DNA of 64,000 nucleotides from a virus: positions 1-64,000 of the IMG/VR virus record IMGVR_UViG_3300025423_000009; one strand, given 5' to 3'. The notes beneath the pieces were generated by a model, which saw nothing but the letters and a program-made list of their open reading frames with translations, was not told the origin of the DNA and ran no database searches. Every line of letters starts with the position of its first letter. Within the stretch, counting starts at the first letter, position 1. The position numbers and the translations under genes are program-made. Shown in pieces: positions 7,220-41,419 of this stretch.

Positions 7220-7263
7220 TATAAATAGAGATGTTGGCCACGGTATTACTAGTACCTGCCAAC
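7220..7263 (+). promoter_or_regulatory. Late promoter TATAAATA plus conserved hairpin (HEG leader, copy 1)
   Basis: TATAAATA 7220-7227; GTTGGC-CAC-GGTA-TTACTAG-TACC-T-GCCAAC 7233-7263. Confidence 0.8.
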
Positions 7264-7290
7264 TCTACACAAACCCAATTAAAGGCAACT

Positions 7291-7944
7291 ATGCAGCAGA
7301 ATTATATTTATCGCAATCCTACTAGAGAAGTACTCATCAATCTTCCCAAACTTCCATTCTTCTATATCATTGAAGAGTGTGATAGTAAAAGATATTATGC
7401 TGGAATAAAACATTTTAATCCAGATCCTGGCAAATTTATGACTAAAGGTGGATATAGAACATCGTGCAATGAAATTAAAAATAAAGATGTTGCTAATTAT
7501 ATCATTAGAAGAATTGTTTTTATTGAAGATAGAAAGACTCTATATTTGCACGAATTTCGTTTTCTAAAATACGTTGATGCTTTCAACAATTCTAAAATAA
7601 TCAATGGTAATTATGGACCTCTCAATCCAAATACTACTGGATGTTCATTAAAGACACGCGAAAAAATAAGATTGGCTAAGCTTGGAAAACCACAATCGGA
7701 ATCACACAGAAAAAACAATAGTCTTTGTCGTATTGGAATCAAACGAAAACCGCACACTAAAGAGACTATAGAAAAAATGAGATTGGCTAAGCTAGGTAAA
7801 TCTCATTCTTCAGAAACTAAGCAAAAGGTGAGATTGAGTAAGCAAGGCCAATTGTGGTGGAATAATGGATCTAGATCTTGTATGGCTAGGGAATGCCCAG
7901 GGATTGAATGGATTAAAGGTAGAAAAAGAATAGCCTGGACATAA
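7291..7944 (+). mobile_element. Free-standing GIY-YIG-like homing endonuclease with NUMOD3 repeats (HEG1)
   Basis: FYIIEE..KRYYAG..GYRTS; NUMOD3-like KPHTKETIEKMRLAKLGKSHSSETKQKV; AT-rich; antisense to gp32; likely start 7291 (in-frame ATG also at 7231). Confidence 0.8.
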
Positions 7945-7960
7945 AAATCCAGGCTATTCT
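7921..7960 (-). terminator. 13-bp hairpin overlapping the HEG1 stop; terminator for gp32
   Basis: AGAATAGCCTGGA-CATAAAAA-TCCAGGCTATTCT (7927-7960) followed by a T-run on the minus strand. Confidence 0.7.
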
Positions 7961-7976
7961 ATATTCTTGGCCGATA

Positions 7977-8912
7977 TTAGGAATTTGCGAGACGGGCGAA
8001 GTACGACATACCCTTGCCGCCGTCTTCATCTTCAGTCGTTCCAGACAAGCCGTCAACGACCTCTTCTTCCGTAGCCGCCACCGGACCAGCTTCAGGTTCT
8101 GGAGACGTGTGACGAGGAGTCGGAAGCTCATCGACTTCTTCGGCCGTAGCCGGACCGTCCAGAGCCGTTTCACCGACAACTTCGATCAGCTTCTTCTTCA
8201 GCTCCGCGTAGCTCTTGTAGTTCTTCGGATCGAGGAAGTCCTTGAGCGGATATTCCTGCTTGTAGATCGCTTCCAGAGCCTTGTCGTCACCCTTGAAGAG
8301 TTCTGACGAAGCTTCGAACTCGGACTTATCGTAGTTGCGATAACCTTCGACCTGACGAATCTTCAGCTTGAAGTTGGCGCCAGACCAGAAGTCGAACGGA
8401 TTGATCGGCTGCTCGCCGGGGAACTGCGGATGCATCAGATCGTCGATCTTATCCCAGATCTTCTTACCGAACTTGAATAGGAATACCTTGCCCTCGTTGG
8501 CCGGATTGCCGGGATCCGAGATCACCAGAACGTTGGCGACGTAATGAAGGCGGCGTTTCTGAGCTCGAGCTTGCTTACGCTCCGAAGAGTTGTCGTCGGA
8601 CGAAGCATTCCAGAGTTTCGAGTTTAGTTCGGACACCGGATCATTCTGACCGATCGAGGTTAGAGAGTTCTCGATGTACCAGCGACCCGTGGAGCCCTTG
8701 AAGCCATGATCCCAGTAGCGAACCCAGGCGACGTCTTCTCCCTCGGGAGCCGGAAGGAATCGAAGGACCGCGTATCCGTTTCCGGCCTTATCGACGGTCG
8801 GCGACCAGAAACGATCATCGGTCTCATACTTGTTGGCGTTGAGTTTCTCAGCCGCGGCCAGGAGCTTGCTCATGGAGGCTGAACGGTTTTGCTTTAATGC
8901 ACTGAATGACAT
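7977..8912 (-). CDS. 32: Single-stranded DNA-binding protein gp32
   Basis: DDRFWSPTVDKAGNGYAVLRFLPAP, HGFKG..GRWYIENSLTSIG..DPVSE, FKFGKKI.DKI, NPFDFW.GANFKLK, YRNYDKSEF, acidic tail. Confidence 0.97.
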   Translation of the reverse strand: MSFSALKQNRSASMSKLLAAAEKLNANKYETDDRFWSPTVDKAGNGYAVLRFLPAPEGEDVAWVRYWDHGFKGSTGRWYIENSLTSIGQNDPVSELNSKLWNASSDDNSSERKQARAQKRRLHYVANVLVISDPGNPANEGKVFLFKFGKKIWDKIDDLMHPQFPGEQPINPFDFWSGANFKLKIRQVEGYRNYDKSEFEASSELFKGDDKALEAIYKQEYPLKDFLDPKNYKSYAELKKKLIEVVGETALDGPATAEEVDELPTPRHTSPEPEAGPVAATEEEVVDGLSGTTEDEDGGKGMSYFARLANS

Positions 8913-8989
8913 ATATGTTGTTGTATGTTTGGTTGTGTGTTTGTATTTGCCGAGCTACTCACTCGACAGCAAGAGATATGTATACTACC

Positions 8990-9622
8990 TCAAGAATCTT
9001 TTGATGTAAAGGCATCAATTGCGATCTGACGATAGGTCGGTATATGAAGCTCTCGAGCTAGAAGCTGTGCATACTTGCGAGCCTTCAGCGAATGCTCGGT
9101 CCAGAGACCAAGTGGATCATTCACCTTGGGCATCTCGCGATCGAGGAATCCGGTCAGTGTCTGCAGAATCGCTAGGCCATGAATCGATACTTTATCTTGC
9201 GAATAGGCCGCCAGAATCGGAGGAGGTCGAACACCATCGAGCCTATGATTGGCTTCGAGCATGTCGTCGAAGTCCGAGAACCTCTCGACTACGGACTTGA
9301 TTTCCTGAGAGAATCGATACTGCATTGATTCATGATAGGCACGAAGCTCGATGTATGGTTCCTCATTCATGGAACCGATCCACTTCTTTCCGGCCATCAC
9401 GTTCGCGGACACGTACCACAGGCACTCGTTGAATTCCGAATGCCTGCGAGCCAGCTTCTCGAAGAAGTATCGATCCTTGCGAGCCTCAAAGGCTTGAGCC
9501 GAGAGAGACTTCATCGAGAATCGATACTTCACGGCATCGAGCTTTCCCTCGAAATGAAGCTTGATCGAGGTGACCAAGTTCCATGCCTGAAGCGGAGTAA
9601 CCTTGTTCGAGGTCGATTCCAT
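8990..9622 (-). CDS. 59: Helicase loader gp59
   Basis: SIKLHFEG..DAVKY.F...F..RKDRYFFEKLARR; adjacent to gp32. Confidence 0.85.
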   Translation of the reverse strand: MESTSNKVTPLQAWNLVTSIKLHFEGKLDAVKYRFSMKSLSAQAFEARKDRYFFEKLARRHSEFNECLWYVSANVMAGKKWIGSMNEEPYIELRAYHESMQYRFSQEIKSVVERFSDFDDMLEANHRLDGVRPPPILAAYSQDKVSIHGLAILQTLTGFLDREMPKVNDPLGLWTEHSLKARKYAQLLARELHIPTYRQIAIDAFTSKDS

Positions 9623-9969
9623 CAGTGCTTGGCACGATTCTCGACCTTGCGTTCCCTGGCTTCAAGCTTACGCTTGGCACTCTTGGACGGCTCTCGACGA
9701 GGAGCCAGATGCGGAATCACCTTGCCATTCTCGTCAACCTGATTCTGACGAACCTTGATGAAGCGCGAGATCATCGGTCGAGGATTGTTGTTGATCTTGA
9801 TGTTGTACTTCTTCACGAGTTCGAGCATCGTGGCTTTATCCTTGTCGGAAGGCTTGACTCCAGTGTTGACGTACTTCTCGACATATGACTGAATCAGAGC
9901 GCGATCGCCTGGATCCATCTCGAGTGTAGATGAGTTAAGTTTGGTATCGATCATGGTGGTATGTGGCAT
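9622..9969 (-). CDS. Hypothetical protein
   Basis: 115-aa ORF coupled between gp33 and gp59. Confidence 0.6.
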   Translation of the reverse strand: MPHTTMIDTKLNSSTLEMDPGDRALIQSYVEKYVNTGVKPSDKDKATMLELVKKYNIKINNNPRPMISRFIKVRQNQVDENGKVIPHLAPRREPSKSAKRKLEARERKVENRAKH

Positions 9970-9971
9970 AA

Positions 9972-10217
9972 TTAAAGTAACATGGTTGAGGTTCTCTTTC
10001 GCCCCTTCACGGTGTTAAGTTGAATCGATTCCTTCTCGATCTTGCTTTTCAGCGGAGAGGTCAGAATCATCTTTGCGACGTCGATCGGATCGATGCCATG
10101 TTCATCACAAACATGAACGACCGCTTCCGAGTAACGCATGTGTTCTTTCTGGACCAGCAATTCGACTCGCTCGGCCAGAGTTTGCTTGTTGAGGACTGGC
10201 AATGAAGCTATAGTCAT
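9972..10217 (-). CDS. 33: Late transcription co-activator gp33
   Basis: VE.LV...MRYSEAVVHVCDEHGIDP.DVAK.I...LKSKIEKE...LN; synteny with 59 and 32. Confidence 0.9.
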   Translation of the reverse strand: MTIASLPVLNKQTLAERVELLVQKEHMRYSEAVVHVCDEHGIDPIDVAKMILTSPLKSKIEKESIQLNTVKGRKRTSTMLL

Positions 10218-10270
10218 GATGTGTGTTTAGTGGAGTGGCAAAGTTGAATCAGATTCATGTTAGTATCCTA

Positions 10271-10492
10271 TCACGGTTTCTTCTTTTGTACAGCTAATTG
10301 TTTCCCGAGGGAAGCTTTACAGGACTTGAATACCTTCTTCAGAAGATCCATGTCAATCGTTCGATTCGAGTAGGAGTCACGGCGACACATTTGAGTGTCA
10401 AAGCGACGGCGATAATCTTCTAACTGCTCGCGGTAGGAGTCACGTTCGCATATAGCATCAGTAAGCTTGAGTTGGGTGTCGGTGTATTTCAT
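10271..10492 (-). CDS. Hypothetical protein
   Basis: MKYTDTQLKL...; start overlaps upstream stop. Confidence 0.5.
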   Translation of the reverse strand: MKYTDTQLKLTDAICERDSYREQLEDYRRRFDTQMCRRDSYSNRTIDMDLLKKVFKSCKASLGKQLAVQKKKP

Positions 10493-10740
10493 AATTGTTT
10501 CTTCCAAGCGATGATGCCCCAGACATTCAGAGGAGCGAACATGAGCTGACAGAGCATCAATGCGGTCTGATTCGTGTTCCAAGCATAGGCGAACCAGATC
10601 GCACACGATAGCAGTCCAACGTACCACGTTAGTCGCATCTTCAAGATCGTGAGAATCATGCAGATCACGGTCAACATGAATGCGATCCATGAAAGAGTTT
10701 GATTGATCTCAGGTATATTCATGCCAGAATGACTATTCAA
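10489..10740 (-). CDS. Small 3-TM membrane protein, PnuC/SemiSWEET-like
   Basis: Three hydrophobic helices; W.VGLLS..IW, Q..F..LNVWG..W pattern. Confidence 0.5.
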   Translation of the reverse strand: MNSHSGMNIPEINQTLSWIAFMLTVICMILTILKMRLTWYVGLLSCAIWFAYAWNTNQTALMLCQLMFAPLNVWGIIAWKKQL

Positions 10741-11086
10741 AGGTCGTCTCCTTGTAGATGACTATGACTGATCCATCCTCATGATTGATCGTTCCATAGA
10801 GTTGATATGTGCGAGTCTCGATGGTCGAGGCGGAAATTGGAATAGCTCGTCCATTGACGATCCAGTCGACACGCTTCTGAATCGGCCGTCGCATGAATTT
10901 AGGATAGTTGCCATCATGACACGTGTAAAGCTTCGAATCATCGAGCTCCATTCCATCAGCCGTGTGAATGCGGATGCGATACTTTCCCTCATTAGGCTCA
11001 AACTTTAAGACTTCTTTTTTGCCATAGTTTAGTAATGCAGCCTCTATGGCACGATGTTCATATTCATTGATCTCTGTCTCATTCAT
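10733..11086 (-). CDS. Hypothetical protein
   Basis: ORF with ATGA coupling to the upstream gene. Confidence 0.55.
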   Translation of the reverse strand: MNETEINEYEHRAIEAALLNYGKKEVLKFEPNEGKYRIRIHTADGMELDDSKLYTCHDGNYPKFMRRPIQKRVDWIVNGRAIPISASTIETRTYQLYGTINHEDGSVIVIYKETTFE

Positions 11087-11361
11087 ACTGAAATCTCCTT
11101 GACGGAATCCAGACGGAACGAACGCCATGCCTGCTTGTCGAGATCATACACGCAGATCACGTTCGAATTACGAGGCTGAACCTGCTCCATCAGATCCTTC
11201 TGTTTGAGAGCCGGATAGCTTCCATCCTTCAGTGTGCAGTTCATCGTACGAAGAGTGCCATCGGCCTTTCGAAAGACAACGGTCGTCGAATGACGACCAC
11301 GTAAAGACTCGATCAGAGCCGCTCGTTCCAAATCCGTATTGTTGAATGCTGTAATGTTCAT
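11083..11361 (-). CDS. SH3-fold WYL_2/DUF2693-like protein
   Basis: V.FRKADGTLRTMNCTL ... VYDLDKQAWRSFR.DSV. Confidence 0.75.
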   Translation of the reverse strand: MNITAFNNTDLERAALIESLRGRHSTTVVFRKADGTLRTMNCTLKDGSYPALKQKDLMEQVQPRNSNVICVYDLDKQAWRSFRLDSVKEISV

Positions 11362-11603
11362 TTTTGAAAGTTAGTAACACGAACCAGATCGATGTAGTCA
11401 CCAAAGCGAGCATCGAAAGTTTTGATCAGATGTTCATAGTCCGAGGAAATCATTTCCTCATGTACTTGATTGAGTTGAACTGGAGTGAAGCCAAGCTGCT
11501 TACCTAACCTTTGAGCATATCCAAGTAGAACAAAGGCATTCCCTTCTGGTCCATTCAAATTGATCTCAGGCTTACCGCGATGAATTGGAGCTCTAATTGC
11601 CAT
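11358..11603 (-). CDS. Conserved phage hypothetical protein
   Basis: EINLNGPEGNAFVLLG.A..L.KQLG...M.S.DYEHL...FD..FG. Confidence 0.65.
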   Translation of the reverse strand: MAIRAPIHRGKPEINLNGPEGNAFVLLGYAQRLGKQLGFTPVQLNQVHEEMISSDYEHLIKTFDARFGDYIDLVRVTNFQK

Positions 11604-11757
11604 AGTCTTCTAGATCATGATGTTTGCCGTATTTGGGGCGCCGACGATAATCCTTGACCGTCTCGTGTGCATGGCCAGGAGGAGGTACAGGTTTTCGTAG
11701 TGCATCCATAGCCTGAGCCGCGATGCTTTTCTTCTTTCTTTTAAGTTTCATATAAAT

Positions 11758-12909
11758 TTAACGATCACCCTTCAGGCAATTGTTGGGATCAATGCGAGCA
11801 TAGTTTGGAACACCCAGACCAGTCAGTCCCATGAAAAGGAATGTCACTTTACGACCGATCATCTTTTGTTGTTGTGCCAGAACGCGCGCGCGATCTTCAT
11901 GAGAACCCATAAACACGGCCTCGAATTCCTTACCTTTCCATCGAACCACCGCATTCTGAGCCGTACCATGCCGCTCTCCCTTGCCCTCGACGATAGCCTG
12001 AATGACACACTCATCATCGTCCTCGGGCTTTACCTTCAGAAGACTGTTCGAGCGCTTATGTTCGTAAGCCGAATTCATGTCTCGAAGAATGACACCCTCC
12101 TGATTATCATTCAGAGCCTCTTCATAGATCGCAAGCATCTTTTTTTCGGAATCAACGAGCATGGTATGAACTTTCTCACAAAAATCAAATTTGGCAATGA
12201 TGTTTTTGTCAATCCAAGCCTTGCGAGTCGCATAAGGAGTGTCTTCCGTCATTCCGGCAAAGCCATATCCATCATAGATGTAGAATCGAACCAGACTCTT
12301 GGACTCATTTAGATCCGAGGTCGATGGCTTGGATTTACGAATGATCGAGGTTAAGTCATTCAGGCGCTGGCGTAGCTCGTAATTGAAAAGCTCTCCATCC
12401 AGAACCGCATCGGGCCACGCTTCAAAGAATCCTTCTAGTGCCTGAACAATATGAGGAATCGACGCATAGAGCTTACCTCCACGTGTCAAGAATCCACGAT
12501 TTGTGGCCGCACAGCGATTACCATTGAATTTGATCTGAACTCCCCATGAACCTTGAGTGAAGTCAATAGACTTTTTACGATCACGATATTTTTTGGCAAG
12601 CATGACTTCGATATGACGCAAGGACTTATCAATGTCCTTTACATTTTGCCAATATCCAATCTCTTGATTCTTCTTCCATTGTGCCTCGGCTTCAAAGAGA
12701 GCCTGATCTTCCGCGGAACGCTCATTGGCACGGCCAACATTAGTGGCCAGTGAAGGATACCATTCGGTCGTGGTTGTTTTACCGCCTTCCTGACCGTAGA
12801 TCGTGCGATACTTGGCTCCATCGACTTCGATGGTCCAGTGACGAATCATGCCGGTCGAGGCTCGAGAATATAGAATTGGAAAAATCTTTTTCACTTTGCA
12901 ATTAGACAA
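11758..12909 (-). CDS. 30: ATP-dependent DNA ligase (gp30-like)
   Basis: Motif I QIKFNGNR, LDGELF, FYIYDGY, EGVILRD, RS.SLLKVKP, OB-fold C-terminus. Confidence 0.9.
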   Translation of the reverse strand: MSNCKVKKIFPILYSRASTGMIRHWTIEVDGAKYRTIYGQEGGKTTTTEWYPSLATNVGRANERSAEDQALFEAEAQWKKNQEIGYWQNVKDIDKSLRHIEVMLAKKYRDRKKSIDFTQGSWGVQIKFNGNRCAATNRGFLTRGGKLYASIPHIVQALEGFFEAWPDAVLDGELFNYELRQRLNDLTSIIRKSKPSTSDLNESKSLVRFYIYDGYGFAGMTEDTPYATRKAWIDKNIIAKFDFCEKVHTMLVDSEKKMLAIYEEALNDNQEGVILRDMNSAYEHKRSNSLLKVKPEDDDECVIQAIVEGKGERHGTAQNAVVRWKGKEFEAVFMGSHEDRARVLAQQQKMIGRKVTFLFMGLTGLGVPNYARIDPNNCLKGDR

Positions 12910-12953
12910 GAGTCAATTTGTATTTTTTGCCATCAATCTCAACGATACGGCCC

Positions 12954-13703
12954 TCACAGGTGGAAGATTGCTCGAACAATCTTCCACGTGGAAGATTGCT
13001 CGGGATTCTTTTTGATGATGTTCACCTTTCCATGAGCCATCGTGCCTGTCACAATTTCCTTACACGTGATGACATCATGTGCATTTTTCATGTAGGGAGA
13101 AGTTCCAGCAAAGATCTTGTAGTCACGACCAGCCTTGATGCCCTCACCAGCATTGATGCCACAGCCAGCATTGATGCCACAGCCAGCCTTGATGCCCGTG
13201 CCAGCCATGATGTCCGAGCCAGCCTCGATGCTCCAGCGAGCGTTGATGCCCTCGCCAGCCATGATGTCCGTGCCAGCCTTGATGCCACAGCCAGCCTTGA
13301 TGCCCGCGCCAGCCTTGATGGCATAGCCAGCCTTGATGCCCGTGCCAGCCTTGATGCCCGTGCCAGCCTTGATGTCCGCGCCAGCCTCGATGCCCTCACC
13401 AGCCTCGATGCCCTCACCAGCCTCGATGTCCCAGCCAGCCTTGATGCCCTTGTCAGCCTCGATGCCCTTGTCAGCATTGATGTACCAGCCAGCATTGATG
13501 CCCTCGCCAGCCGTGATGCCCGAGCCACTTTTAGCTTGAATGTATCCAGTGACGATGAGCGATCCAGAAAAATACACCATTCCTAAGTCTTTTTCGATGA
13601 TGAGATGCCCGTCGAAGTGCCCGTCGAAGTTACTTGAATCGGTGTAATGATTCCGCGAATCCAGATCTTTTTTAGTGATAGTGTAGATAGTGTATGTCTT
13701 CAT
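12954..13703 (-). CDS. Hexapeptide-repeat (GxxIxA) beta-solenoid protein
   Basis: 22 consecutive 6-aa units such as GEGIEA and GTGIKA; early promoter upstream. Confidence 0.75.
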   Translation of the reverse strand: MKTYTIYTITKKDLDSRNHYTDSSNFDGHFDGHLIIEKDLGMVYFSGSLIVTGYIQAKSGSGITAGEGINAGWYINADKGIEADKGIKAGWDIEAGEGIEAGEGIEAGADIKAGTGIKAGTGIKAGYAIKAGAGIKAGCGIKAGTDIMAGEGINARWSIEAGSDIMAGTGIKAGCGINAGCGINAGEGIKAGRDYKIFAGTSPYMKNAHDVITCKEIVTGTMAHGKVNIIKKNPEQSSTWKIVRAIFHL

Positions 13704-13750
13704 TCTGATACCATTCTACCATGAAGCCTTGACTTGTACATAGGAAAGTG
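13704..13750 (-). promoter_or_regulatory. Early promoter (TGTACA ... TTCATGGTAGAAT)
   Basis: Matches the promoter family repeated across the window. Confidence 0.65.
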
Positions 13751-13754
13751 AAAG

Positions 13755-13784
13755 AATATCTCGTTGCAAATCAGCTACTTGCAC
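13755..13784. repeat. 30-bp element copy 1 containing an IHF-like site
   Basis: AATATCTCGTTGCAAATCAGCTACTTGCAC, identical to 17286-17315; contains AATCAG-CTAC-TTG (WATCARNNNNTTR). Confidence 0.8.
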
Positions 13785-21807: not shown

Positions 21808-21850
21808 CATAAATAGAAATGCTGGTCGCGATACGTCAATATCCACCAGC
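21808..21850 (+). promoter_or_regulatory. Late promoter CATAAATA plus conserved hairpin (HEG leader, copy 2)
   Basis: GCTGGT-CGC-GATA-CGTCAA-TATC-C-ACCAGC at 21821-21850. Confidence 0.8.
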
Positions 21851-21874
21851 TCTACAATAACCAATTAAGCTATT

Positions 21875-22504
21875 ATGCAGCAGAATCATATTTATTTGGT
21901 CTATAAGACCACGAATAGAATCAATAATCATTTCTACGTAGGTGTTCACAAAAACAAAGGAATAACGTTTGATGGTTATTTGGGGTCTGGTACCGGATTA
22001 AAACGGGCAATCTTAAAATATGGAAAAGATAATTTCTATAGAGAAACTCTTTTTCAATTTGATACTGCAGAAGAAGCTTATAGAAAAGAACGTGAGATAA
22101 TTGGAACATCATATTTAACTGAAGAATGTTATAATATGCATCCCGGTGGACAGGGAATTCGAAATACTCTTATTTATATCCGTAGTCCTGAATGGCGTAA
22201 GGCTGTCTCTAGGGCAGCAAAAAGACAGGTTCATTCCATAAAACGTCGTCGAGAATCCAGTATAAGAATGTCGGGTGAAAAAAATATTGCTTGTAGAACA
22301 GATGTTCGTAAAAAGATTAGTTTGGCTAAAAAAGGAATAAAAAGATGGTATGATCAAAACGGGGCAATATCATTTGCATTTGAATCGCCAGGACCTTTAT
22401 GGAATCCGTGTCAAGGATTAAAATGGTTTCGTACAATTGAAGGAGATACGCGCTTATGTCTTCGTCGTCCTGGCCCTAATTGGCTTTTAGGCAAAGGGTT
22501 TTAA
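21875..22504 (+). mobile_element. Seg-like GIY-YIG homing endonuclease (HEG2)
   Basis: VYKTTN.IN..FYVGVH...DGYLGSG...AI.KYG..NF.RE.L..F.T.EEAY..E; AT-rich; antisense to neighbours. Confidence 0.9.
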
Positions 22505-22913
22505 GGTGCTCGGAACGAATTCTAGAGGACACCCATCGATTATAGTATTGATCCGGATTCAGAAGGCAATGACGAGCGAAGATCTCATAGGTTTCCCAGT
22601 ATGTGCAGTGAGCCTTCATGACACAGACGTGAAGGATCTCGCGTGAGAAGTTCTCGACACCAAGCTTCTCAATGTCGGCCAGAAGGTAGCTCGATGAGCC
22701 GCAGTACTCCTTCCAATCAGACTCAATCTTGAACTTCTTTCTCTTACCCTTGACTTGCTTGGACTTCGAAGACCAGAAAAACTTCTTTCCGATGTAGGAT
22801 TTACCGGTCGGAACGTGGGTAATCTTATACACGAATCCCTGAATATTCTTGGGATCCGCATCGGTGGGGAGTTGAAACGCTTTACCTTGATACATCCATG
22901 GATTGAGTGCCAT
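22476..22913 (-). CDS. Conserved T4-like GIY-YIG protein
   Basis: GFVYKIT...TGKSYIGKKFFW...ESDWKEYCGSS...FSREILH. Confidence 0.8.
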   Translation of the reverse strand: MALNPWMYQGKAFQLPTDADPKNIQGFVYKITHVPTGKSYIGKKFFWSSKSKQVKGKRKKFKIESDWKEYCGSSSYLLADIEKLGVENFSREILHVCVMKAHCTYWETYEIFARHCLLNPDQYYNRWVSSRIRSEHLKTLCLKAN

Positions 22914-22924
22914 GGAATTATGTA

Positions 22925-23086
22925 TCAGTCTTCTTCCGCGAGCTGTCCACAGAATGGGCAATAGTCGGCCGAGAGATCAGCTTCCGGATCAAAGTCCATG
23001 TCGGTGTGATCGTCCGGAGCGTCGAATGGAGTCGCACGAATCGTGTAGACCACTCGACAGGTGTTACAGTACATGTCAGTTTTCAT
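22925..23086 (-). CDS. Small zinc-ribbon protein
   Basis: Manually read MKTDMYCNTC...DYCPFCGQLAEED* (53 aa). Confidence 0.7.
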   Translation of the reverse strand: MKTDMYCNTCRVVYTIRATPFDAPDDHTDMDFDPEADLSADYCPFCGQLAEED

Positions 23087-25052: not shown

Positions 25053-25649
25053 TTATATATGAGTATTCAATTCCGCTTTACGCCTTATCCATGATTCTTT
25101 CATTTTTTTCCGAGTTTCTTCTGAATGAGTTTTGCCACTCATTCCCTTTGTTCTATTTCCCGGTTTTCCTTTTTTTGCGATGGATAGTTTTTCCCGCATT
25201 TCTTTAGATTTTGATTTGCCCTTTTGCCATTTGGACATTCTTTTACGAGTTTCTTCTGAATGAGTTTTGCCTGTAAACCCACCAATTCTACCAACCTGCC
25301 CTTCAGATATTTTAATCCGATGATCTTCAGACAATGATACCCCTTTATGTGATTCGGATATCTTTTTGCAAACTTCTTTAGAATGATTGATAAAAGGAGA
25401 ATGTATACCTCGCATCATTTGATATGCTCGTTTATCACCTGGCATTTTATAAATTCTCCAAAGCAAATAATGTGCAATAATATGTTCTTCGTGTGTTAGA
25501 TATGTAAAATTATATTCCTCATCTGTACCACCGGCATGTCTGGGTTTAATGTGATGCCGATATAAGGTTAATCCAGAATTTGAATTCCAAGATTCTTTAA
25601 GAAGTTTGCGAGACTCAACTAGCTTAGTATAAATAAGATTGCTGAACAT
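25053..25649 (-). mobile_element. Free-standing HNH (Mob-like) homing endonuclease with NUMOD3 repeats (HEG3)
   Basis: HHIKPRHAGG.D...N...LT.EEH.IAH.LL; GKTHSEETRK twice; between nrdB and nrdA like T4 mobE. Confidence 0.9.
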
Positions 25650-25677
25650 AGAGACCTTTCATTCTTACATGTTTAGT

Positions 25678-25723
25678 GCCGATGGGTACATCACTACCGC
25701 GATCGGCTTCAATCGTATTTATA
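25678..25723 (-). promoter_or_regulatory. Late promoter TATAAATA plus conserved hairpin (HEG leader, copy 3)
   Basis: Minus strand TATAAATA (25716-25723) then GCCGAT-CGC-GGTA-GTGATG-TACC-C-ATCGGC (25678-25707). Confidence 0.8.
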
Positions 25724-25734: not shown

Positions 25735-26712
25735 CTAGAAAAGATCTTCTTCATTGAATGACTTGTCGTTCTTGGAGTACTCTGTCGGGCGTTTGCTAAA
25801 AAAGTCTGTTGCTGTGTTTCCTAAGACATCCTCGGAAAACCATATAGTTTGATCCAATAGCACTTTATCTATGTCTTCAAATACTGGCTTGATGCCGATC
25901 TGAATCAGCGAATCATTTAGACGATTCTTGATGAAGTTTTTGAGAATATCCGCCGTCAGATTCTCGGATTGATAACCGTTTAATGACCAGTCAATAATTT
26001 TGGCCTCGGCCTTATAGGCTTCGATGCATTCCGAACGAATGCGTTCGATCAGCTCGTCATCGAAGAGTTCCGGATGCTCTTCACGAATTGTGTTGACGAG
26101 CTTCATTCCAGCCAACGCGTGAATGAGTTCCTCACGAGATGTGTAGGCAACCTGCTGTGAGGTGTCCTTGAGCATGTTGCGAAAGCGATTAAAGTAGTTG
26201 ATCGTGTAAAACTGAGAGAAGAGGCTCACGTTCTCGACGTACAGTGTGAAGAGAATCAGCGAGTATACATACTGCTTTCGTGAATCCTTGTAATGCTTCT
26301 TGAGGTACTTACGCAGGTATTTGACTCGATTCTGAATCACGTCGAGCTTGAGATTCTCCTCGAAGATGTGCTCCATGTCAAGGACCTTGAGCAGGCGTTC
26401 ATATGCATTGTTATGAATCACCTCGACGTTGGCCATCACGTATCCAAGATCCGTGATCGATGGATGTGGAAGATTCTCACCAACCTTGGCCCAGAACGTC
26501 TTCACGGCCACCTCGATCTGTGCGATCGCCGAAAGCGATCGAGTAATCATGTCCCTCTCGCGATCATTCAGATTGACCTTGAAGTCCTGTATGTCGGATT
26601 GAAAGTTGAATTCTTTATCGGTCCAGAATCCATGATGCATGGAATCTATGAATTCGGAAGTCCATGGATAGTGATCGGGTTTTCTGGAGATTTGTTCATC
26701 GAAGATTGACAT
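25735..26712 (-). CDS. nrdB: Ribonucleotide reductase small subunit, class Id-like
   Basis: AIAQIEVAVK, E.IH..AY, ENVSLFSQF, E.IH, C-terminal DFF.KRP.EY.K..K.....DLF. Confidence 0.95.
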   Translation of the reverse strand: MSIFDEQISRKPDHYPWTSEFIDSMHHGFWTDKEFNFQSDIQDFKVNLNDRERDMITRSLSAIAQIEVAVKTFWAKVGENLPHPSITDLGYVMANVEVIHNNAYERLLKVLDMEHIFEENLKLDVIQNRVKYLRKYLKKHYKDSRKQYVYSLILFTLYVENVSLFSQFYTINYFNRFRNMLKDTSQQVAYTSREELIHALAGMKLVNTIREEHPELFDDELIERIRSECIEAYKAEAKIIDWSLNGYQSENLTADILKNFIKNRLNDSLIQIGIKPVFEDIDKVLLDQTIWFSEDVLGNTATDFFSKRPTEYSKNDKSFNEEDLF

Positions 26713-28156: not shown

Positions 28157-28309
28157 TTGATCTTATTTATACGTTTGAGTTTCTTGCGTCGAAGAGTCTT
28201 GGCGGCCAGAACGTTGTTCTTCAGGATGCCTTTGATCGATTCATTGAGAGATTTCATTTGATCTTATTTATACGTTTGAATTTCTTGCGTCGAAGAGGCT
28301 TGGCGGCCA
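28093..28309. repeat. 101-bp tandem duplication (2 copies plus a partial) carrying a late promoter
   Basis: 28093-28193 repeats at 28194-28294 with a few substitutions; each copy has minus-strand TATAAATA. Confidence 0.9.
28153..28257 (-). CDS. Chimeric 34-aa mini-ORF created by the duplication
   Basis: MKSLNESIKGILKNNVLAAKTLRRKKLKRINKIK*. Confidence 0.4.
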   Translation of the reverse strand: MKSLNESIKGILKNNVLAAKTLRRKKLKRINKIK

Positions 28310-33407: not shown

Positions 33408-33413
33408 GTTTTC

Positions 33414-34616: not shown

Positions 34617-34629
34617 TGAAGTAAAATCT

Positions 34630-35451: not shown

Positions 35452-35464
35452 GATGTAGTAAGAT

Positions 35465-35680
35465 TTACGATAGCTTCAGATAGGGCCGTCGAGCTCGTCT
35501 CTCGGCACGCTCAACGAGGCGTCGCGAGTTGGCCCGTCGATACGGCAGGCCTTGCTCACGAAGTCCACGCCGACGCTTGACGTACTGATAGTTCAAGAGG
35601 CCGTCATCGTTCAGATACTCACCTGTGTAGTCTACCGATGTGAGATCCTTGAAGTTGACTTTGGATGAGTCTTGAGCCAT
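35465..35680 (-). CDS. Small late protein
   Basis: Late promoter at 35692-35699 upstream. Confidence 0.55.
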   Translation of the reverse strand: MAQDSSKVNFKDLTSVDYTGEYLNDDGLLNYQYVKRRRGLREQGLPYRRANSRRLVERAERRARRPYLKLS

Positions 35681-35704
35681 GTCTATTTCGTTATTTATAC
35701 GAAT

Positions 35705-36919
35705 TCAACGTTGCCAGCCTTTAACCACGTCTGGACTGAAGTTAGCTTTGGAGAACTCCAGTCGATCGACCAGCTTGACGGTTCCGGCCTTGGTTCCGAC
35801 CACGTAGCCTTCCTGTCCGGTTCGTTCGTATCCATCCTTGGTCTTCAGAAACGTCGAGATTCCTCCAAGACGATTTAGCTGAGCAATCAATTCCTTCTTG
35901 GCTCCCACCAGTTGAGCCTGAAGCTTGAATGCCTTGACGATGTTTGACAGATTCTCTCTGGAGAAGAAGTCGAACGTGATCTGACGTCGTGCATTGACGG
36001 CCTGCTTACCCTTCTCGGTCTTCTTCGAAGCCACTTCCCGATCGAAGCGAGCGTTCATCCAGGCCACGAGCTCCGTGGCATGCTTCTGTGGATCATCGAT
36101 CTCTCGGCCCGCACGAACCTTCGAATTAGCAAAGGTCTCGATGGTCTGAGCCAGATCAGGATTGGATTGCAAGGCTTTTAGAATCGAGGACGGAATGGAC
36201 TTGAGAGTGGCCTCGGCTTCCTTGAGAGTCGCATCGACTTTACCGAGGTCTGCGGTGGATGATACCTTCTCCGTGCCGATACCCTTGAGATCCGCCGTGC
36301 GCCACCAGATCGAAGGAATTCGCTTAAACGATTTGGTGTCTACTCCCGGAGAAGCATGGAGTGCACTCAGCTTACCGGTATATGACGTATGAAACACCAC
36401 GCCGATCTTGGCGGCCATGATAGCCTTGGCTTCCGATGAATCGAGTGGAACCGCGTAAACGATCGTGTTTGGATGAAAGGTGACGTAGTCTCGACCTTGA
36501 ATCTTCTGACGCTTCAGAGTGTCGGACGTGAAGAGCAAATCTCCTTGAATGATTCCTCGAATGCCAAGCTTGGAGAACTCGATCAGAGCGACCTTCATCT
36601 TGTTATTGAGATCTCCGGCCTCGATGTGATCGTCGATGTCCTGTGGAGTCTTATACACCTCTGGAACTTTATTGAAGATCGACTTCTTGGCCACGAAGAA
36701 CTTACCATCGGCTGGATCGGTACCACAGAAAATTGCCGGCGCGCCATCCCACTTGACCGTGACGGAAGCCGTGGCTCCTTTTCCGGTCAGAGAGTCACGA
36801 ACCGCACGAAGAGCCTGAATGGCCGACTTGGCGCCCTCGATACCACCATAGAGGACCTGATCCTCCACATGAGTTAGATGTCCAGAACCTTCGAGAATGA
36901 ATTGCTTGAAAGTCATCAT
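35705..36919 (-). CDS. DUF6267-like protein with a ligase-type KWDG motif
   Basis: HLTHVED, TVKWDGAPAI, FFVAKKS.FNK, QGDLLFT, PNTIVY, EGYV, KLVDRLEFS; MMTFKQFILE tag. Confidence 0.7.
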   Translation of the reverse strand: MMTFKQFILEGSGHLTHVEDQVLYGGIEGAKSAIQALRAVRDSLTGKGATASVTVKWDGAPAIFCGTDPADGKFFVAKKSIFNKVPEVYKTPQDIDDHIEAGDLNNKMKVALIEFSKLGIRGIIQGDLLFTSDTLKRQKIQGRDYVTFHPNTIVYAVPLDSSEAKAIMAAKIGVVFHTSYTGKLSALHASPGVDTKSFKRIPSIWWRTADLKGIGTEKVSSTADLGKVDATLKEAEATLKSIPSSILKALQSNPDLAQTIETFANSKVRAGREIDDPQKHATELVAWMNARFDREVASKKTEKGKQAVNARRQITFDFFSRENLSNIVKAFKLQAQLVGAKKELIAQLNRLGGISTFLKTKDGYERTGQEGYVVGTKAGTVKLVDRLEFSKANFSPDVVKGWQR

Positions 36920-36923
36920 ATCA

Positions 36924-37826
36924 TCATTCGGCTGAGTCAGAAGCTTCAATCTTTACTAGCGGCTTGATAGTCTTGGAAGTGTATCGCTCGATCGAGACGT
37001 CCGTGGCCTTCACGGATTTAACGGCCACGATCGTTCCCATCTTCGGATAGTTTTCAACGTTGTGAAGGAACACGACCTCGTGATTCTTGAAGTAATGATC
37101 GTAAGCGATCTTTCCAAACTTCTCCTCGATCTTCTGAAACTCTTTGGGAAACTTAGCTTTCAGCTCAGCGATGATTGATCCAGGAATCTCGGAAGTGACT
37201 TCGAATCCACCACGATTGGCCAGATCGATCAATGCGCGCTCGACTTCGATGGTCGAGAAAGTACCTCCGAGCTTAAAGTCATAAGCGTGTCCGGACTTCT
37301 TAACCTTCACGGCCTTGAGTTCATACTCGGCTTCCGGAAGCATGATGTCTTTTCCACCCGAAGATCCGCCACCTAAAGTCGCGTAGTCATACATGAAGTA
37401 GAACAAGACTTCACCGGGACCGATTCCTTTGACTCCATAGTTGTATAGTCTTGCAAATGATTTGCCGCTTTCGAGCTCGGAGTTTTTCAGTTCAGCCAAT
37501 GCGTGATTGAACTCTTCCTTCTTAATCGTCTTGCTCTTTAAAGTCTTAGATATATGGAACTTTGGAAAGTAGTACTTGCAGAAGAGGTATTGAATCTCAC
37601 GCTTGTTCTTCAGAGTCTGAAAGTCCGTGCCGGTTAGATTGAGTTGAGTCACGTGTTCGGCGCGATTGAGGAATTCTTTATCTAGTTTGTCGACGTCAGA
37701 CTTCTCAGAAGTGGCCTCGTTGATGATGACCTCCGCACGATTGATGAATGCTATGTCAAGCCCATACGTTTCAGGATCGATCGATTTGAGGCAATGGCCG
37801 CGAAATTCATTGAGCGTCTTCTTCAT
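36924..37826 (-). CDS. PD-(D/E)XK-fold putative nuclease, late
   Basis: G.GPGE, KDI......YELKA (D..ExK); AATAAATA promoter variant at 37834-37841. Confidence 0.55.
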   Translation of the reverse strand: MKKTLNEFRGHCLKSIDPETYGLDIAFINRAEVIINEATSEKSDVDKLDKEFLNRAEHVTQLNLTGTDFQTLKNKREIQYLFCKYYFPKFHISKTLKSKTIKKEEFNHALAELKNSELESGKSFARLYNYGVKGIGPGEVLFYFMYDYATLGGGSSGGKDIMLPEAEYELKAVKVKKSGHAYDFKLGGTFSTIEVERALIDLANRGGFEVTSEIPGSIIAELKAKFPKEFQKIEEKFGKIAYDHYFKNHEVVFLHNVENYPKMGTIVAVKSVKATDVSIERYTSKTIKPLVKIEASDSAE

Positions 37827-37839
37827 GTCCTTCTATTTA

Positions 37840-38688
37840 TTAGATTCCTTGTTTCTCGATCGAAGCCGGAAGTTCCGTGGCCTTGGAATTCATGGCCGCT
37901 CGAGGCTTCAGAGTCACTCGAACTCCCTTATACTCCTTACCATCCACCTTGAATCGAGCCGAAGGCATCGCTTCCGCCGATAGAACCACACGCCTCTGTT
38001 GATCATTCAGGTACATATTCAGATCTCGATCATTAAGCCTGAATCCCACGGAAGCTCGAAGAGTGTAAGACTCTCCGGTCTTAGACAGTCGAAACACCTT
38101 TCCCTCACTTCGAAACTCAATATTGTCCTTGCTCTTCTTCGTATCCCTCTTGTACAATGGACCAAATACGGCTCGTCCGGCTAGCTTGCGATCCTTTACA
38201 GGTAGAAAGAAGCTCTTCTGACCTTCCGTGATGTCGATTAAACGACTGGCCACTTGGCGCAGAAATGCCGCGACCTCTGAATCCTTGGAGATGTTGCCGA
38301 TCCGTCCTCCATCGGCATGGAATGACAGGCCCGAGTAGAAGTCGATCTGAGAGGGATTTGTCACCCAATCCAGACAGAAGTAGCACGTCTCCTGAAACTT
38401 GCCATTGATCAGAGAAACGAAGGCCAGATCCGCCTTCGATCGAGTCTGGCGATCAAGATCTATGAGAGGATGATTGAAGACTCGATTGACGCCATAGATG
38501 TCCTTGAGCTTAATTGGTGTGTTGGCGATGGTTAGCGTGATCGGCTCACCGATGCGAAAGAGCTCAGAATTAAAGTAAGTCATGAACGCCGTGATGCCGC
38601 GTTCCATGGAAGACGGATCGTTGAGCTTGTATGACTTGTCGAGTGAGGCCTGCTGAAAGAGCAGGCCATGAGTCTTCGCGGATGGCAT
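37840..38688 (-). CDS. Hypothetical late protein, possibly degenerate PD-(D/E)XK fold
   Basis: SKADLAF but no ExK/SxK; YSGLS; RAVFG. Confidence 0.5.
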   Translation of the reverse strand: MPSAKTHGLLFQQASLDKSYKLNDPSSMERGITAFMTYFNSELFRIGEPITLTIANTPIKLKDIYGVNRVFNHPLIDLDRQTRSKADLAFVSLINGKFQETCYFCLDWVTNPSQIDFYSGLSFHADGGRIGNISKDSEVAAFLRQVASRLIDITEGQKSFFLPVKDRKLAGRAVFGPLYKRDTKKSKDNIEFRSEGKVFRLSKTGESYTLRASVGFRLNDRDLNMYLNDQQRRVVLSAEAMPSARFKVDGKEYKGVRVTLKPRAAMNSKATELPASIEKQGI

Positions 38689-38692
38689 GTCC

Positions 38693-39034
38693 TTATTTAC
38701 AAGGGGCAGATGAAGGATGTGACGGTGATTGATAATTCTCGATGCGACGAATCACGTCCTGACGATCGCAGCAGGTGGATATCGAGATCATATTTGGAAT
38801 AGTCTCATGAGCCTCATCGAGCGTATTTTCTGAATCTATACCCTTGAGCTTCTTAATGATTGGAGCCTTACTCTTGGCCAGACACCGTGCTACGGCGCGA
38901 GAAGCAGATACGGATTCAACGACATATTCCCGCTTGGCATAGTTAAACACGTCTCCGATTCGACGGCGAATCTGTCCCGGAGGAATGTCGGTCTGATCGA
39001 GCTCGATGTCATTATATGATATGTTATTTTTCAT
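38693..39034 (-). CDS. Hypothetical protein
   Basis: 113-aa ORF in operon orientation. Confidence 0.5.
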   Translation of the reverse strand: MKNNISYNDIELDQTDIPPGQIRRRIGDVFNYAKREYVVESVSASRAVARCLAKSKAPIIKKLKGIDSENTLDEAHETIPNMISISTCCDRQDVIRRIENYQSPSHPSSAPCK

Positions 39035-39177
39035 AGATTAGTCTGATTGATGATTATCCTGTGGTTCATTTCGAGTCGTATATGTGATGATCTTCCAGGC
39101 CATGAAAGCGAGTGGAAACCAAACGATCGCGATGATCGAAATCATGATACAGGCCAGAATGAATCGTACAAGTGCCT

Positions 39178-39792
39178 TCATGCAATCGGAATCAAGTCTC
39201 GAAGGTATCGATACAGTTCGACGGTCTTACGAATGTCGTACGAGGCATCATGTGCCTGAGAGTCGTCCCATCCAAGTTCCGCGCACTTGCATACCGTATT
39301 CAGCTTAAAATTGGGCAGCGCCCCGCGAATCGACTGAACATACCATGCCGCGGCTTGCATGACACAGAGAGCCGGAACCCAGAACCACGAGCCAAAGAAC
39401 TCGTCGTTGTTCTTGCGAAAGAACTCGCGAACGAAGTCCGCATCGAACTGTGCGTTATATCCGACAAAGTGCATCTTATCGGCCTTGTCGAACTTATCAC
39501 AGTGACGACTCAGGAACTCGACGAATAGGCCATAAGCCTGCGTGGCCGACATCGGCCTGGCCATGAGTTCATCGAGAGTAACCTTGCCGAGCTTCAGGGC
39601 TTCTGGATCGGAGGCTAAGACAATGAACGGACAGAACTTCAGATCGATCTTCTCGAGCTCATTGAGATTCGAGTCCGTGATGATGGCGGACAGTTGATGG
39701 ATGTTGTGTGTCTTTCGATCGATGCCATTGGTCTCGACGTCGATGAAGCAGTATTTGTATTGAGGGCGATCTTTCATTGTAAATTGGAGCAT
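39178..39792 (-). CDS. DEDDh 3'-5' exonuclease (DnaQ-like)
   Basis: FIDVETNG, FVGYNAQFDADF, AHDASYDI. Confidence 0.9.
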   Translation of the reverse strand: MLQFTMKDRPQYKYCFIDVETNGIDRKTHNIHQLSAIITDSNLNELEKIDLKFCPFIVLASDPEALKLGKVTLDELMARPMSATQAYGLFVEFLSRHCDKFDKADKMHFVGYNAQFDADFVREFFRKNNDEFFGSWFWVPALCVMQAAAWYVQSIRGALPNFKLNTVCKCAELGWDDSQAHDASYDIRKTVELYRYLRDLIPIA

Positions 39793-39860
39793 CGGATGGG
39801 ATTCGAACCCACGACCAGCACATTGGAAGTGTGCGACTCTACCAACTGAGTTACCGATGC
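39785..39860 (-). tRNA. tRNA-Gly(TCC)
   Basis: GCATCGG...GCACA-CTTCCAA-TGTGC...GGTTCGAATCC...GATGCTCCA. Confidence 0.93.
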
Positions 39861-39861
39861 G

Positions 39862-40209
39862 TTAGCGGCCAACATTGATTAGTTGAGGATTCTGCAAAAA
39901 GAACGAGCTTTCTGGCGTGACGATGGTGCATGACCTTTGAACCAGAGCATGCATCAGATCTTTGGCCAACTTCTCGGCCTCGCTGTCGATGTCCGCTGAA
40001 GTCTTTGGAAATCGCGGATAGTTGATCAGGCCAATGATGGCTCCGGCTTCTCGACCTCCGGTATAGACGTACTCGGTCGGCGTGACCGTGACACATGCAC
40101 CCTCAGCGCAATGATGCTGACAGAAGTGCTTGATCATAGTGATGTCTCCGGCGATGTAGATCTTAACCTCATAGCTCGCGGCCTCGGACGTAATTGAATT
40201 CGAATTCAT
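39862..40209 (-). CDS. Conserved phage hypothetical protein
   Basis: CVTVTPTEYVYTGG.E.G..IGLINYPRFP. Confidence 0.7.
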   Translation of the reverse strand: MNSNSITSEAASYEVKIYIAGDITMIKHFCQHHCAEGACVTVTPTEYVYTGGREAGAIIGLINYPRFPKTSADIDSEAEKLAKDLMHALVQRSCTIVTPESSFFLQNPQLINVGR

Positions 40210-40415
40210 ACCTTGATTTCCTTTCCATCATGAACGTTCATAAGACACATGCGCTCATCGAGCATCGCGTCGATGCGTTCGGTCCATCGCTTCTTCAGTT
40301 CCGGAGTCTTGGCTTCGTCTCGTCCTTCCTTGAACATCGCGAGTATCTTGTCGACCTGCTCGATCATGTCGAGAATCTGCTTCTTGTCTTCAGGAGTGAG
40401 TTTGTATTTCATCAT
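40206..40415 (-). CDS. Hypothetical protein
   Basis: MMKYKLTPEDKKQ... helical. Confidence 0.55.
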   Translation of the reverse strand: MMKYKLTPEDKKQILDMIEQVDKILAMFKEGRDEAKTPELKKRWTERIDAMLDERMCLMNVHDGKEIKV

Positions 40416-40419
40416 ATAA

Positions 40420-40866
40420 TTAAGAATTGAATAGTCCCTGAGCCCAGGACTTCTTGGTATGTCCATTTGCGGCGGCCCAACGAACAAACAGCCCGAGCTC
40501 TCGTCCATAGGCTTCGATCTCGAGCGGATCGTCCCAGTAGTTTTCCGCAGGATCTTGATTTCGCATGTGTTCTCCAATCACAAACTGCTTGATGTGAACC
40601 GTCTCATGAGCAATTGATAATAGACTCAGCCTTGTATCAACGGATGGATCCACTCGAATCGTATACTCACCATGACCGACCAAATTGTCTGGAGTCACAT
40701 CCGCACATAGGCCTTCGCGCTTCATCAGACCTCGTTCGGCGATCACATTGATGATCGTCCTATGAGTCTGATCGGATGCCAGGTGATTCAGTGTATATTG
40801 AATCAAGGATGCGATCAGTTCAGCTTTCTGCTCTGAGAATGGCTGCTCAAAATATATTCGTGCCAT
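40420..40866 (-). CDS. Zincin-like metallopeptidase (HExxH)
   Basis: SIAHETVHIKQF ... YWDDPLEIEAYG. Confidence 0.75.
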   Translation of the reverse strand: MARIYFEQPFSEQKAELIASLIQYTLNHLASDQTHRTIINVIAERGLMKREGLCADVTPDNLVGHGEYTIRVDPSVDTRLSLLSIAHETVHIKQFVIGEHMRNQDPAENYWDDPLEIEAYGRELGLFVRWAAANGHTKKSWAQGLFNS

Positions 40867-40870
40867 AGTA

Positions 40871-41137
40871 TTACTTATCGCTTGGATATGCGGCAATCAG
40901 CTTGCGAGCCTGAATCAAAACCTGCTCAAGCTCATCGAGGTCAAAGCTCAACTTTCCCTCGGAGTCTTCGAAACACTGAGTCAGAACGATGAACGGTCCG
41001 CCTGCCTCATCCTGAATACGAATCTTTGTCACGGAATGACCAAAGATCGGATTCTCACCGACACGATGTATCGAGACCTCGATCGGAGTGGTGACGAGGT
41101 ATTTCACGGATGGAATGTCTTTATTTTCAGTGCTCAT
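40871..41137 (-). CDS. Hypothetical early protein
   Basis: Follows early promoter at 41169-41220; IQDEAGGPF motif. Confidence 0.6.
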   Translation of the reverse strand: MSTENKDIPSVKYLVTTPIEVSIHRVGENPIFGHSVTKIRIQDEAGGPFIVLTQCFEDSEGKLSFDLDELEQVLIQARKLIAAYPSDK

Positions 41138-41168
41138 TGGTGTGAATTTTGAATTTGTTAAGGTTGTT

Positions 41169-41220
41169 TTTATTCTGAGATAATTCTATCATGAAGACCT
41201 GAATTGTAAACAAAAAAGTG
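41169..41220 (-). promoter_or_regulatory. Early promoter (T-tract GTTTACA ... TTCATGATAGAAT)
   Basis: Family consensus; 27 nt (41169-41195) identical to 56664-56690. Confidence 0.7.
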
Positions 41221-41375
41221 CAGGAGAATCTCTACTTGTATGAGTTTACGATCTAATTGTGTGAAAATAATCATTTTTGCGTTCTAATTGTGTCAAAGAT
41301 GTCTTTTCAAGGGCTTGGAGAGATCTAATTGAATGAAACGGATCGATCCTGCAAATCATTTGAAATTGAGATTTG

Positions 41376-41419
41376 CATAAATAAAAGATGCTGGCCACGG
41401 TATGCAACTACCTGCCAGC
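41376..41419 (+). promoter_or_regulatory. Late promoter CATAAATA plus conserved hairpin (HEG leader, copy 4)
   Basis: GCTGGC-CAC-GGTA-TGCAAC-TACC-T-GCCAGC at 41390-41419. Confidence 0.8.

Follow-up and report, generated by a model that had tools for sequence, protein, structure and literature searches.

How do unrelated homing endonuclease genes (HEGs) of a single phage come to carry the same element at their 5′ ends, and on which strand does that element act? An HEG can persist in a phage genome only if its expression is kept low and well timed, and mRNA hairpins, promoter choice and autorepression are the known means of control. The question is raised by the first 64 kb (hereafter the window) of the 117,947-bp IMG/VR virus record IMGVR_UViG_3300025423_000009, in which a preliminary description had pointed to four free-standing nuclease genes, each led by a late promoter and a covarying hairpin (here H1), and had read the hairpin as a shared, possibly undescribed regulatory module of the nuclease mRNA. 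The full record, which has direct terminal repeats and a G+C content of 48.6%, is that of a distant T4-like phage; its gp32 is ~50% identical to gp32 of Stenotrophomonas phage DLP_6, of cyanophages and of Methylophilales phage Melnitz. Our analysis indicates that each of these nuclease genes is headed by a portable cassette of ~80–95 bp, which we recognise from sequence by its two facing T4-type late-promoter boxes and whose order is outer box, H1, a second hairpin (H2) and inner box.

All four window hairpins were confirmed, both in position (Table 1) and in the arms given for them. A strict scan of both window strands for the H1 architecture (6 bp, C-R-C, 4 bp, 4–8-nt loop, 4 bp, Y, 6 bp; zero mismatches) returned these four sites only, bearing out the statement that the motif precedes no other gene in the window. 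With a covariance model of H1 that contains no promoter columns (R1), six copies were found in the complete genome at 38–54 bits, the next-best match scoring 11 bits. The two further copies lie outside the window, at genome positions 95076(+) and 97693(−), the latter heading a paralogue of the genes that start at 7291 and 41454. In each genome copy H1 stands 5, 6 or 8 nt past the box (T/C)ATAAATA (NATAAATA) and 24–35 nt before the start codon. That all nuclease genes carry the motif is true of the window's free-standing HEGs but not of the genome as a whole, in which two nuclease-like genes are without it: H1 was not found at a GIY-YIG+NUMOD3 gene (genome 89533–90225, minus strand) or at a GIY-YIG-only open reading frame (ORF; window 22476–22961, minus strand). 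The former stands directly behind a small late gene and has no intergenic leader.

The stems do contain the compensatory changes that had been claimed for them, since 7 of the 11 pairs vary on both sides among 71 distinct sequences, and slid controls collapse. The strand on which this fold is kept, however, is not that of the nuclease mRNA. Read on the gene's strand, 94.9% of the pair cells form pairs and the set includes 40 A·C and 0 G·U, whereas pairing is complete on the opposite strand, with 671 of 671 cells, 32 of them G·U (cells counted over related sequences). The A·C cases occur in at least 10 separate sequence backgrounds, as against 0 cases of G·T, and the mean energy of H1 is −11.2 kcal/mol antisense versus −9.1 kcal/mol sense. 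The IUPAC pattern with which IMG/VR was searched specified variable positions of the stems only as purine or pyrimidine, did not demand complementarity, and allowed G·T and A·C equally. Because every non-Watson–Crick pair is A·C on the gene's strand and G·U on the other, we conclude from the pattern of exchanges that the H1 fold is selected on the strand opposite the nuclease gene; a conserved 5′ element of the nuclease mRNA is not supported. The lone middle pair, described as A with T and G with C, follows this rule mostly but not strictly, with A opposite C in genome copy 97693 and in 7 of 60 unique IMG/VR variants. It does pair, but with wobble allowed on the opposite strand, where A·C becomes G·U.

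H1, taken at first for the whole unit, is real but makes up only half of it. Between H1 and the start codon lies H2, which folds on the antisense strand only: in 59 of 59 unique leaders this region is more stable antisense (−7.5 versus −2.65 kcal/mol; Wilcoxon p 2e-11). Native leaders compared with their shuffles give a mean z of −1.95 antisense and +0.2 sense, which rules out base composition as the cause of the asymmetry. RNAalifold recovered H2 and H1 together on the antisense strand, where one H2 pair is G·U in 65 of 67 sequences and another shows six pair types. The feet of H2 are a conserved TCTA after H1 and CAGC before the ATG, and its loop is the complement of the Shine–Dalgarno sequence (SD) in most relatives.

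The unit is completed by a late-promoter box in reverse orientation. TATTTAT, the reverse complement of the late-promoter core, occurs with at most one mismatch in 67 of 68 unique cassettes (39 exact), 5–8 nt beyond H2 on the gene's strand, and conservation falls to background right after it. This inner box sits among the opening codons of the nuclease and is found in each of the three reading frames (46/16/5), where it encodes Ile-Tyr, Tyr-Leu, Ile-Phe-Ile or Thr-Tyr, and it is present in GIY-YIG-like, HNH and TnsA-like genes alike; the frames and the range of genes exclude its being merely the Ile-Tyr codons of a GIY-YIG motif. Spacing is equal on both faces of the cassette, with a box, ~5 nt and then the first stem base. 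The late-promoter word TATAAATA is itself enriched in the window (12 occurrences versus 0.86 expected). T4 late transcripts start ~6 nt after TATAAATA. In this genome the ATG of many late genes stands only 4–7 nt past the box, which suggests that late transcripts would start ~5–7 nt past it, that is, at the first bases of H1 in the sense direction and of H2 in the antisense direction.

The cassette is widespread. The H1-type pattern matched at least 107 IMG/VR loci, and the outer box NATAAATA is nearly invariant, being present in 115 of the 116 pattern matches listed. On five large contigs R1 found 12 copies, including some whose outer stems fall outside the IUPAC pattern. Although R1 is blind to the promoter, the box precedes 6 of 6 genome matches and 12 of 12 contig matches, in the latter at the same spacing (11 exact ATAAATA, one GTAAATA). 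It precedes the complete hairpin by 5–8 nt in all 18 R1 copies and in all 109 pattern matches listed, the spacing in these 109 being fixed by the pattern itself. Seventeen of the 18 R1 matches head an ORF, and those that were classified are all nucleases or nuclease remnants, in agreement with the proposed specificity for nuclease genes. The partners are nonetheless unrelated, as had also been proposed: ORFs downstream of the cassette fall into at least 20 protein clusters, among them GIY-YIG-like/NUMOD3, SegE-like GIY-YIG, HNH_3, HNH with NUMOD1 and TnsA-like nucleases. A shared operator for autorepression, in the style of I-TevI, is ruled out as the basis of the element by its being common to unrelated nuclease families.

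Nor was the module matched to any Rfam family. Rfam 15 at gathering thresholds gave only five tRNAs over the whole window, and E-value scans of two cassettes gave nothing above 15 bits, the families matched having gathering scores of at least 39 bits. Neither megablast of window positions 5000–12000 nor blastn of two cassettes yielded a relevant match among GenBank phages, and R1 gave no copy in the cultured phages Aeromonas phage 25 (even at E ≤ 10), Stenotrophomonas DLP_6, Methylophilales Melnitz-3, Synechococcus S-SKS1 and Rhizobium RHph_TM40. In a sixth cultured phage, Sinorhizobium phiN3, a 19-bit R1 match lies inside a coding sequence and has no box, and was set aside as chance. What remains of the preliminary description is thus a module that is shared, covarying, specific to nucleases and without an Rfam match; what the strand test does not support is its place as a sense-strand 5′ element of the mRNA.

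The copy at 95076(+), here copy 5, bears on whether the cassette moves as a unit. It is a relic (genome 95063–95200) that retains both hairpins intact, but its inner box has degenerated to ATAGATA and its nuclease ORF ends after 42 codons. Copies 2 and 5 are 86–96% identical within the ~90-nt cassette and ~50% identical outside it, homology stopping at the cassette borders. Since their homology is limited to these ~90 nt, the cassette is a portable unit and not a mere paralogous untranslated region.

What could such a cassette do? We favour, with something close to but short of an even chance, a cis-antisense RNA composed of H2, H1 and a U-rich tail that would cover the 5′ leader of the nuclease and restrain it, helped by head-on promoter interference. 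The outer box would drive the nuclease mRNA and the inner box a short RNA from the opposite strand, which would begin with H2 and run through H1 into the U-rich tail, the reverse complement of the outer box. If ended at this tail, the predicted RNA would measure 76–83 nt in this genome and ~66–70 nt in the commonest relatives, and would be fully complementary to the first 60–80 nt of the nuclease mRNA, including the SD region where present and the AUG in copies 1–3. It would pair with the nuclease leader while the facing promoters also interfere, and the net effect would be to hold down the output of a DNA-cutting enzyme late in infection. The tail averages 7 U in 12 and begins 1–2 nt past the H1 stem. 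Transcription in the antisense direction would meet a convergent gene or a terminator in 30 of 85 relatives as well as in copy 1 (the canonical terminator at 7166–7199 and then a convergent gene) and copy 3 (nrdB, entered antisense), so that the RNA would be no messenger there.

Such an arrangement has a counterpart in IS10, where facing promoters lie at the 5′ end of the gene of a selfish element and RNA-OUT, a stem-loop antisense RNA of ~70 nt, covers the ribosome-binding site (RBS) of its target, RNA-IN. Here the 5′ part of the target contains, on the opposite strand, a late-promoter word at fixed spacing in 67 of 68 cassettes (a third of them variants), which may act as such a promoter. 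As in IS10, conserved, stable stem-loops, H2 and H1, would overlap the translation start region (the leader, and the AUG in copies 1–3). The target in IS10 is a transposase and the promoters are of the sigma-70 type, whereas here the target would be a homing endonuclease and the boxes are of the T4 late type; the likeness is an analogy of mechanism only. A further point of comparison is CfrI of cyanophage S-PM2 (Millard et al. 2010, via PMC2984593), ~225 nt long and the only antisense RNA known from the literature to overlap an endonuclease gene of a phage. As described there, it resembles the RNA proposed here in belonging to a T4-like phage and lying over a co-expressed homing endonuclease gene, but, compared by description with the H1/H2 cassette, it is a longer RNA that connects the endonuclease gene with psbA, and it involves no portable 5′ cassette (PMC2984593).

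Sense-strand hairpins are known before other HEGs. In T-even phages and Aeh1, an mRNA hairpin buries the SD of I-TevI, I-TevII, I-TevIII, segB and Aeh1 mobE, and late transcripts start inside the hairpin, bypassing it (PMC2988022). In these systems, too, the late promoter TATAAATA and an RNA hairpin lie directly before the HEG and limit or time the nuclease, and the position of the late promoter directly before the endonuclease gene is the same here. There, however, the SD/AUG is sequestered on the mRNA, the late promoter lies inside the hairpin and the fold is that of the mRNA; here H1 ends 24–35 nt before the AUG, the sense leader (H1 to AUG+9) is no more structured than shuffles, the box precedes the hairpin in full, and it is for the opposite strand that the fold is selected. 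A stable hairpin just upstream of the RBS of the Seg-like endonuclease gene seg43(25) of Aeromonas phage 25, not covering the RBS (PMC2988022), is placed like H1, in a genome where R1 finds nothing.

Hairpins containing TATAAATA have also been described from ocean metagenomes, where they lie 5′ of GIY-YIG and Vsr-like endonucleases that are free-standing and belong to 'fractured genes', and have been interpreted as sense-strand RBS traps (Dassa et al. 2009; PMC2677866). They too come from uncultured T4-like phages, consist of inter-pairing conserved motifs before endonuclease ORFs, include the late-promoter word and can persist after endonuclease loss; that study reports neither a strand test nor a second hairpin nor an inner promoter. 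Compared by description only, they may be the same cassette or a sister of it. The early-promoter stem-loops (PeSLs) of T4-like phages are composite terminator/early-promoter motifs that lie between unrelated genes and mark recombination joints (PMC4122927, PMC2839356). Like the cassette they are small, conserved units of stem-loop plus promoter, and in some relatives a sigma-70-type promoter does follow H1 and its tail; PeSLs, however, have early promoters and no fixed association with nuclease genes, while the cassette consists of two hairpins and two boxes of the late type and does not couple a stem-loop terminator to an early promoter of the sigma-70 type.

Several observations weigh against the antisense RNA as we propose it. 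H1 is only a candidate terminator: its 11 pairs are broken by two bulges, the U-tract follows 1–2 nt on, with an 8-nt spacer in the HNH copy, and it went uncalled in a simple consensus scan for terminators. Many relatives have a host gene, equipped with an SD, that starts 2–20 nt past the cassette in the antisense direction; this leaves no room for a promoter, so the RNA must read through H1 there. One third of the inner boxes are off consensus (12 ATAAGTA, 11 GTAAATA) and may be weak or dead. Five of the six cassettes of this genome have no clear SD, so that the notion of an anti-SD loop is inapplicable to those five, and the cell counts behind the strand assignment overstate the number of independent events, the sequences being related. 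Exact inner boxes are, moreover, commoner where the flanking genes run antisense (29/43 versus 7/19, p 0.03, not phylogenetically corrected), a bias that fits a promoter serving host genes. In the main alternative, which we hold to be unlikely on balance, the antisense-strand elements serve neighbouring phage genes and pairing with the mRNA is a by-product. The insertion would have displaced a late promoter for which the inner box, facing outward, is the substitute; H2 and H1 could then be a protective 5′ leader, or H1 and its tail could insulate the next gene against backward transcripts across the nuclease gene. In 45 of 85 contexts an ORF does lie 2–280 nt past the cassette in the antisense direction. 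Some such ORFs start directly with SD and ATG and have no promoter of their own, and others follow a near-perfect TTGACA-17-TATAAT right behind H1 and its tail, in the manner of a PeSL-like terminator/promoter. Cassette-bearing nucleases oppose both neighbours in 39 cases versus 19 in the same direction, and T4 has promoters for neighbouring genes within endonuclease genes (PMC2988022). Yet there is no gene that way in copies 1 and 3 or in 30 of the 85 relatives, a read-through leader and a terminator place contrary demands on H1, and neither the SD complement in the H2 loop nor the fact that the unit was never found without a nuclease gene or remnant is explained. The antisense brake and such service to host genes are not mutually exclusive.

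That H1 is instead the 5′-terminal hairpin of the late nuclease mRNA, stabilising it or binding a protein, as first proposed, now appears improbable. In its favour, a near-invariant outer box lies 5 nt before H1, for which reason the late mRNA should begin at the H1 stem; some 60% of unique H1 variants have Watson–Crick pairs throughout and could fold on either strand, and the flanking C bulges are kept in R1-found matches whose outer stems are unlike the search pattern. Stabilising hairpins of the ompA type are conserved on the mRNA strand, at its very 5′ end. H1 has the position (box plus 5 nt) but not the strand, variation on the mRNA strand being A·C only, with no G·U. The commonest variant even has an A·C beside the internal loop, which would leave 4 bp only on the mRNA, the remaining sense leader shows no structure beyond that of shuffles, and H2 and the inner box go unexplained. 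An element acting as DNA we regard as very improbable. Its hairpins would form in one of the strands as single-stranded DNA, or it would simply offer ~90 bp of homology, and in either case promoters and nuclease genes would be shuffled by recombination at this joint, a role proposed for PeSLs. Such an element would suit the confinement of copy 2/5 homology to the cassette and the variety of protein clusters that one cassette heads, and G·T is the most tolerated mismatch in DNA hairpins too. Compensatory changes, however, are not needed for homology alone, the two stems each lie at start-site distance from a promoter box, which points to RNA, and no known homing endonuclease requires a hairpin in its own gene.

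Should the antisense RNA prove correct, it would join the known controls of HEGs as part of a portable cassette common to GIY-YIG-like, HNH and TnsA-like nucleases in more than 100 uncultured T4-like phage contigs, and would explain how unrelated nucleases gain ready-made regulation. A wider claim is more doubtful and is offered tentatively: a two-hairpin, late-promoter cis-antisense RNA, carried in a plug-in cassette of at least four nuclease families, could represent an unnamed, widespread class of phage small RNAs, an antitoxin-like brake on HEGs, whose terminator and outward promoter would permit insertion either way without wrecking the transcription of neighbours. Independently of function, weighing G·U against A·C can reverse the strand to which a '5′ UTR hairpin' (UTR, untranslated region) would at first sight be assigned.

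Table 1 Cassette features, nuclease genes and further late-promoter boxes, in window coordinates; boxes are putative promoters.
Feature	Position	Strand	Remarks
Copy 1, outer (sense) late-promoter box TATAAATA	7220..7227	+	5-nt spacer to H1; minus-strand reading is the U-rich tail after H1
Copy 1, H1	7233..7263	fold selected on −	R1 48.1 bits
Copy 1, H2	7265..7296	forms on − only	−11.6 versus −1.6 kcal/mol; takes in the start-codon complement
Copy 1, inner (antisense) late-promoter box GATAAATA	7305..7312	−	within nuclease codons 5–8
Copy 1, nuclease gene, 217 aa	7291..7944	+	paralogue of 41454–42116; weak phrog_314 and NUMOD3 signals
Copy 2, outer late-promoter box CATAAATA	21808..21815	+	
Copy 2, H1	21821..21850	−	R1 53.6 bits
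Copy 2, H2	21852..21880	−	antisense only
Copy 2, inner late-promoter box AATAAATA	21889..21896	−	
Copy 2, Seg-like GIY-YIG homing endonuclease gene, 209 aa	21875..22504	+	phrog_314, E 5e-36
Copy 3, outer late-promoter box TATAAATA	25716..25723	−	8-nt spacer to H1
Copy 3, H1	25678..25707	fold selected on +, opposite the gene	R1 38.5 bits
Copy 3, H2	25641..25677	+	antisense only; begins at first base past 5-nt spacer
Copy 3, inner late-promoter box, exact TATAAATA	25628..25635	+	within the nuclease's first codons
Copy 3, HNH/NUMOD3 homing endonuclease gene, 198 aa	25053..25649	−	between nrdB and nrdA
Copy 4, outer late-promoter box CATAAATA	41376..41383	+	6-nt spacer
Copy 4, H1	41390..41419	−	R1 39.8 bits
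Copy 4, H2	41421..41452	−	antisense only
Copy 4, inner late-promoter box GATAAATA	41459..41466	−	
Copy 4, nuclease gene with NUMOD3, 220 aa	41454..42116	+	
NATAAATA-type boxes close to ATG	44107, 37841, 33422, 29112, 28171, 16695	−	
NATAAATA-type box close to ATG	3560	+	

The surroundings of the window copies add some detail. Just past cassette 1, at 7166–7199 on the minus strand, is a canonical G+C-rich hairpin followed by a T6 run, and the copy 1 nuclease gene seems to have been inserted between gp32 (7977–8912) and the terminator of gp32, facing the convergent tail gene 5088–7163. A palindromic hairpin (25735–25770), probably the nrdB terminator, separates the stop codon of nrdB from the cassette 3 outer box; the T4 gene mobE occupies the same place between nrdB and nrdA as the HNH gene of copy 3 does here. 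An exact TATAAATA runs antisense in the middle of the copy 2 nuclease gene (22171–22178, minus strand); as a possible embedded late promoter it might serve minus-strand genes further downstream, and its transcripts would cross cassette 2 backwards. Near-consensus sigma-70 promoters were seen past H1 and its tail, before a divergent gene, at the related loci L016, L018, L027, L033, L045, L058, L078 and L107; no sigma-70-like site was called beside the window copies at 21821 and 25707, the two copies scanned.

The ATG that the preliminary description placed at the 5′ edge of the stem is not a conserved start. Depending on the copy, it opens an in-frame fusion, an ORF of 13–16 codons or an out-of-frame ORF of 76 codons. 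An ATG, GTG or TTG at this edge was accordingly rejected as the start of a leaderless upstream ORF: a loop of 6 versus 7 nt shifts the frame, with an outcome that varies by copy, and the codon lies 3–4 nt past the box, probably upstream of the start of transcription.

Most NATAAATA boxes of the phage stand 4–7 nt before the ATG of their own gene, both in the window (Table 1) and at many further sites in genome positions 70683–116684. Because this gap leaves no room for an SD, many late mRNAs of the phage may be leaderless. Two TATAAATA boxes on the minus strand, at 28164–28171 and 28265–28272, lie ~101 nt apart with identical flanks of ~60 nt that include the start-codon context, as if a short segment comprising a promoter and the start of a gene had been duplicated in tandem.

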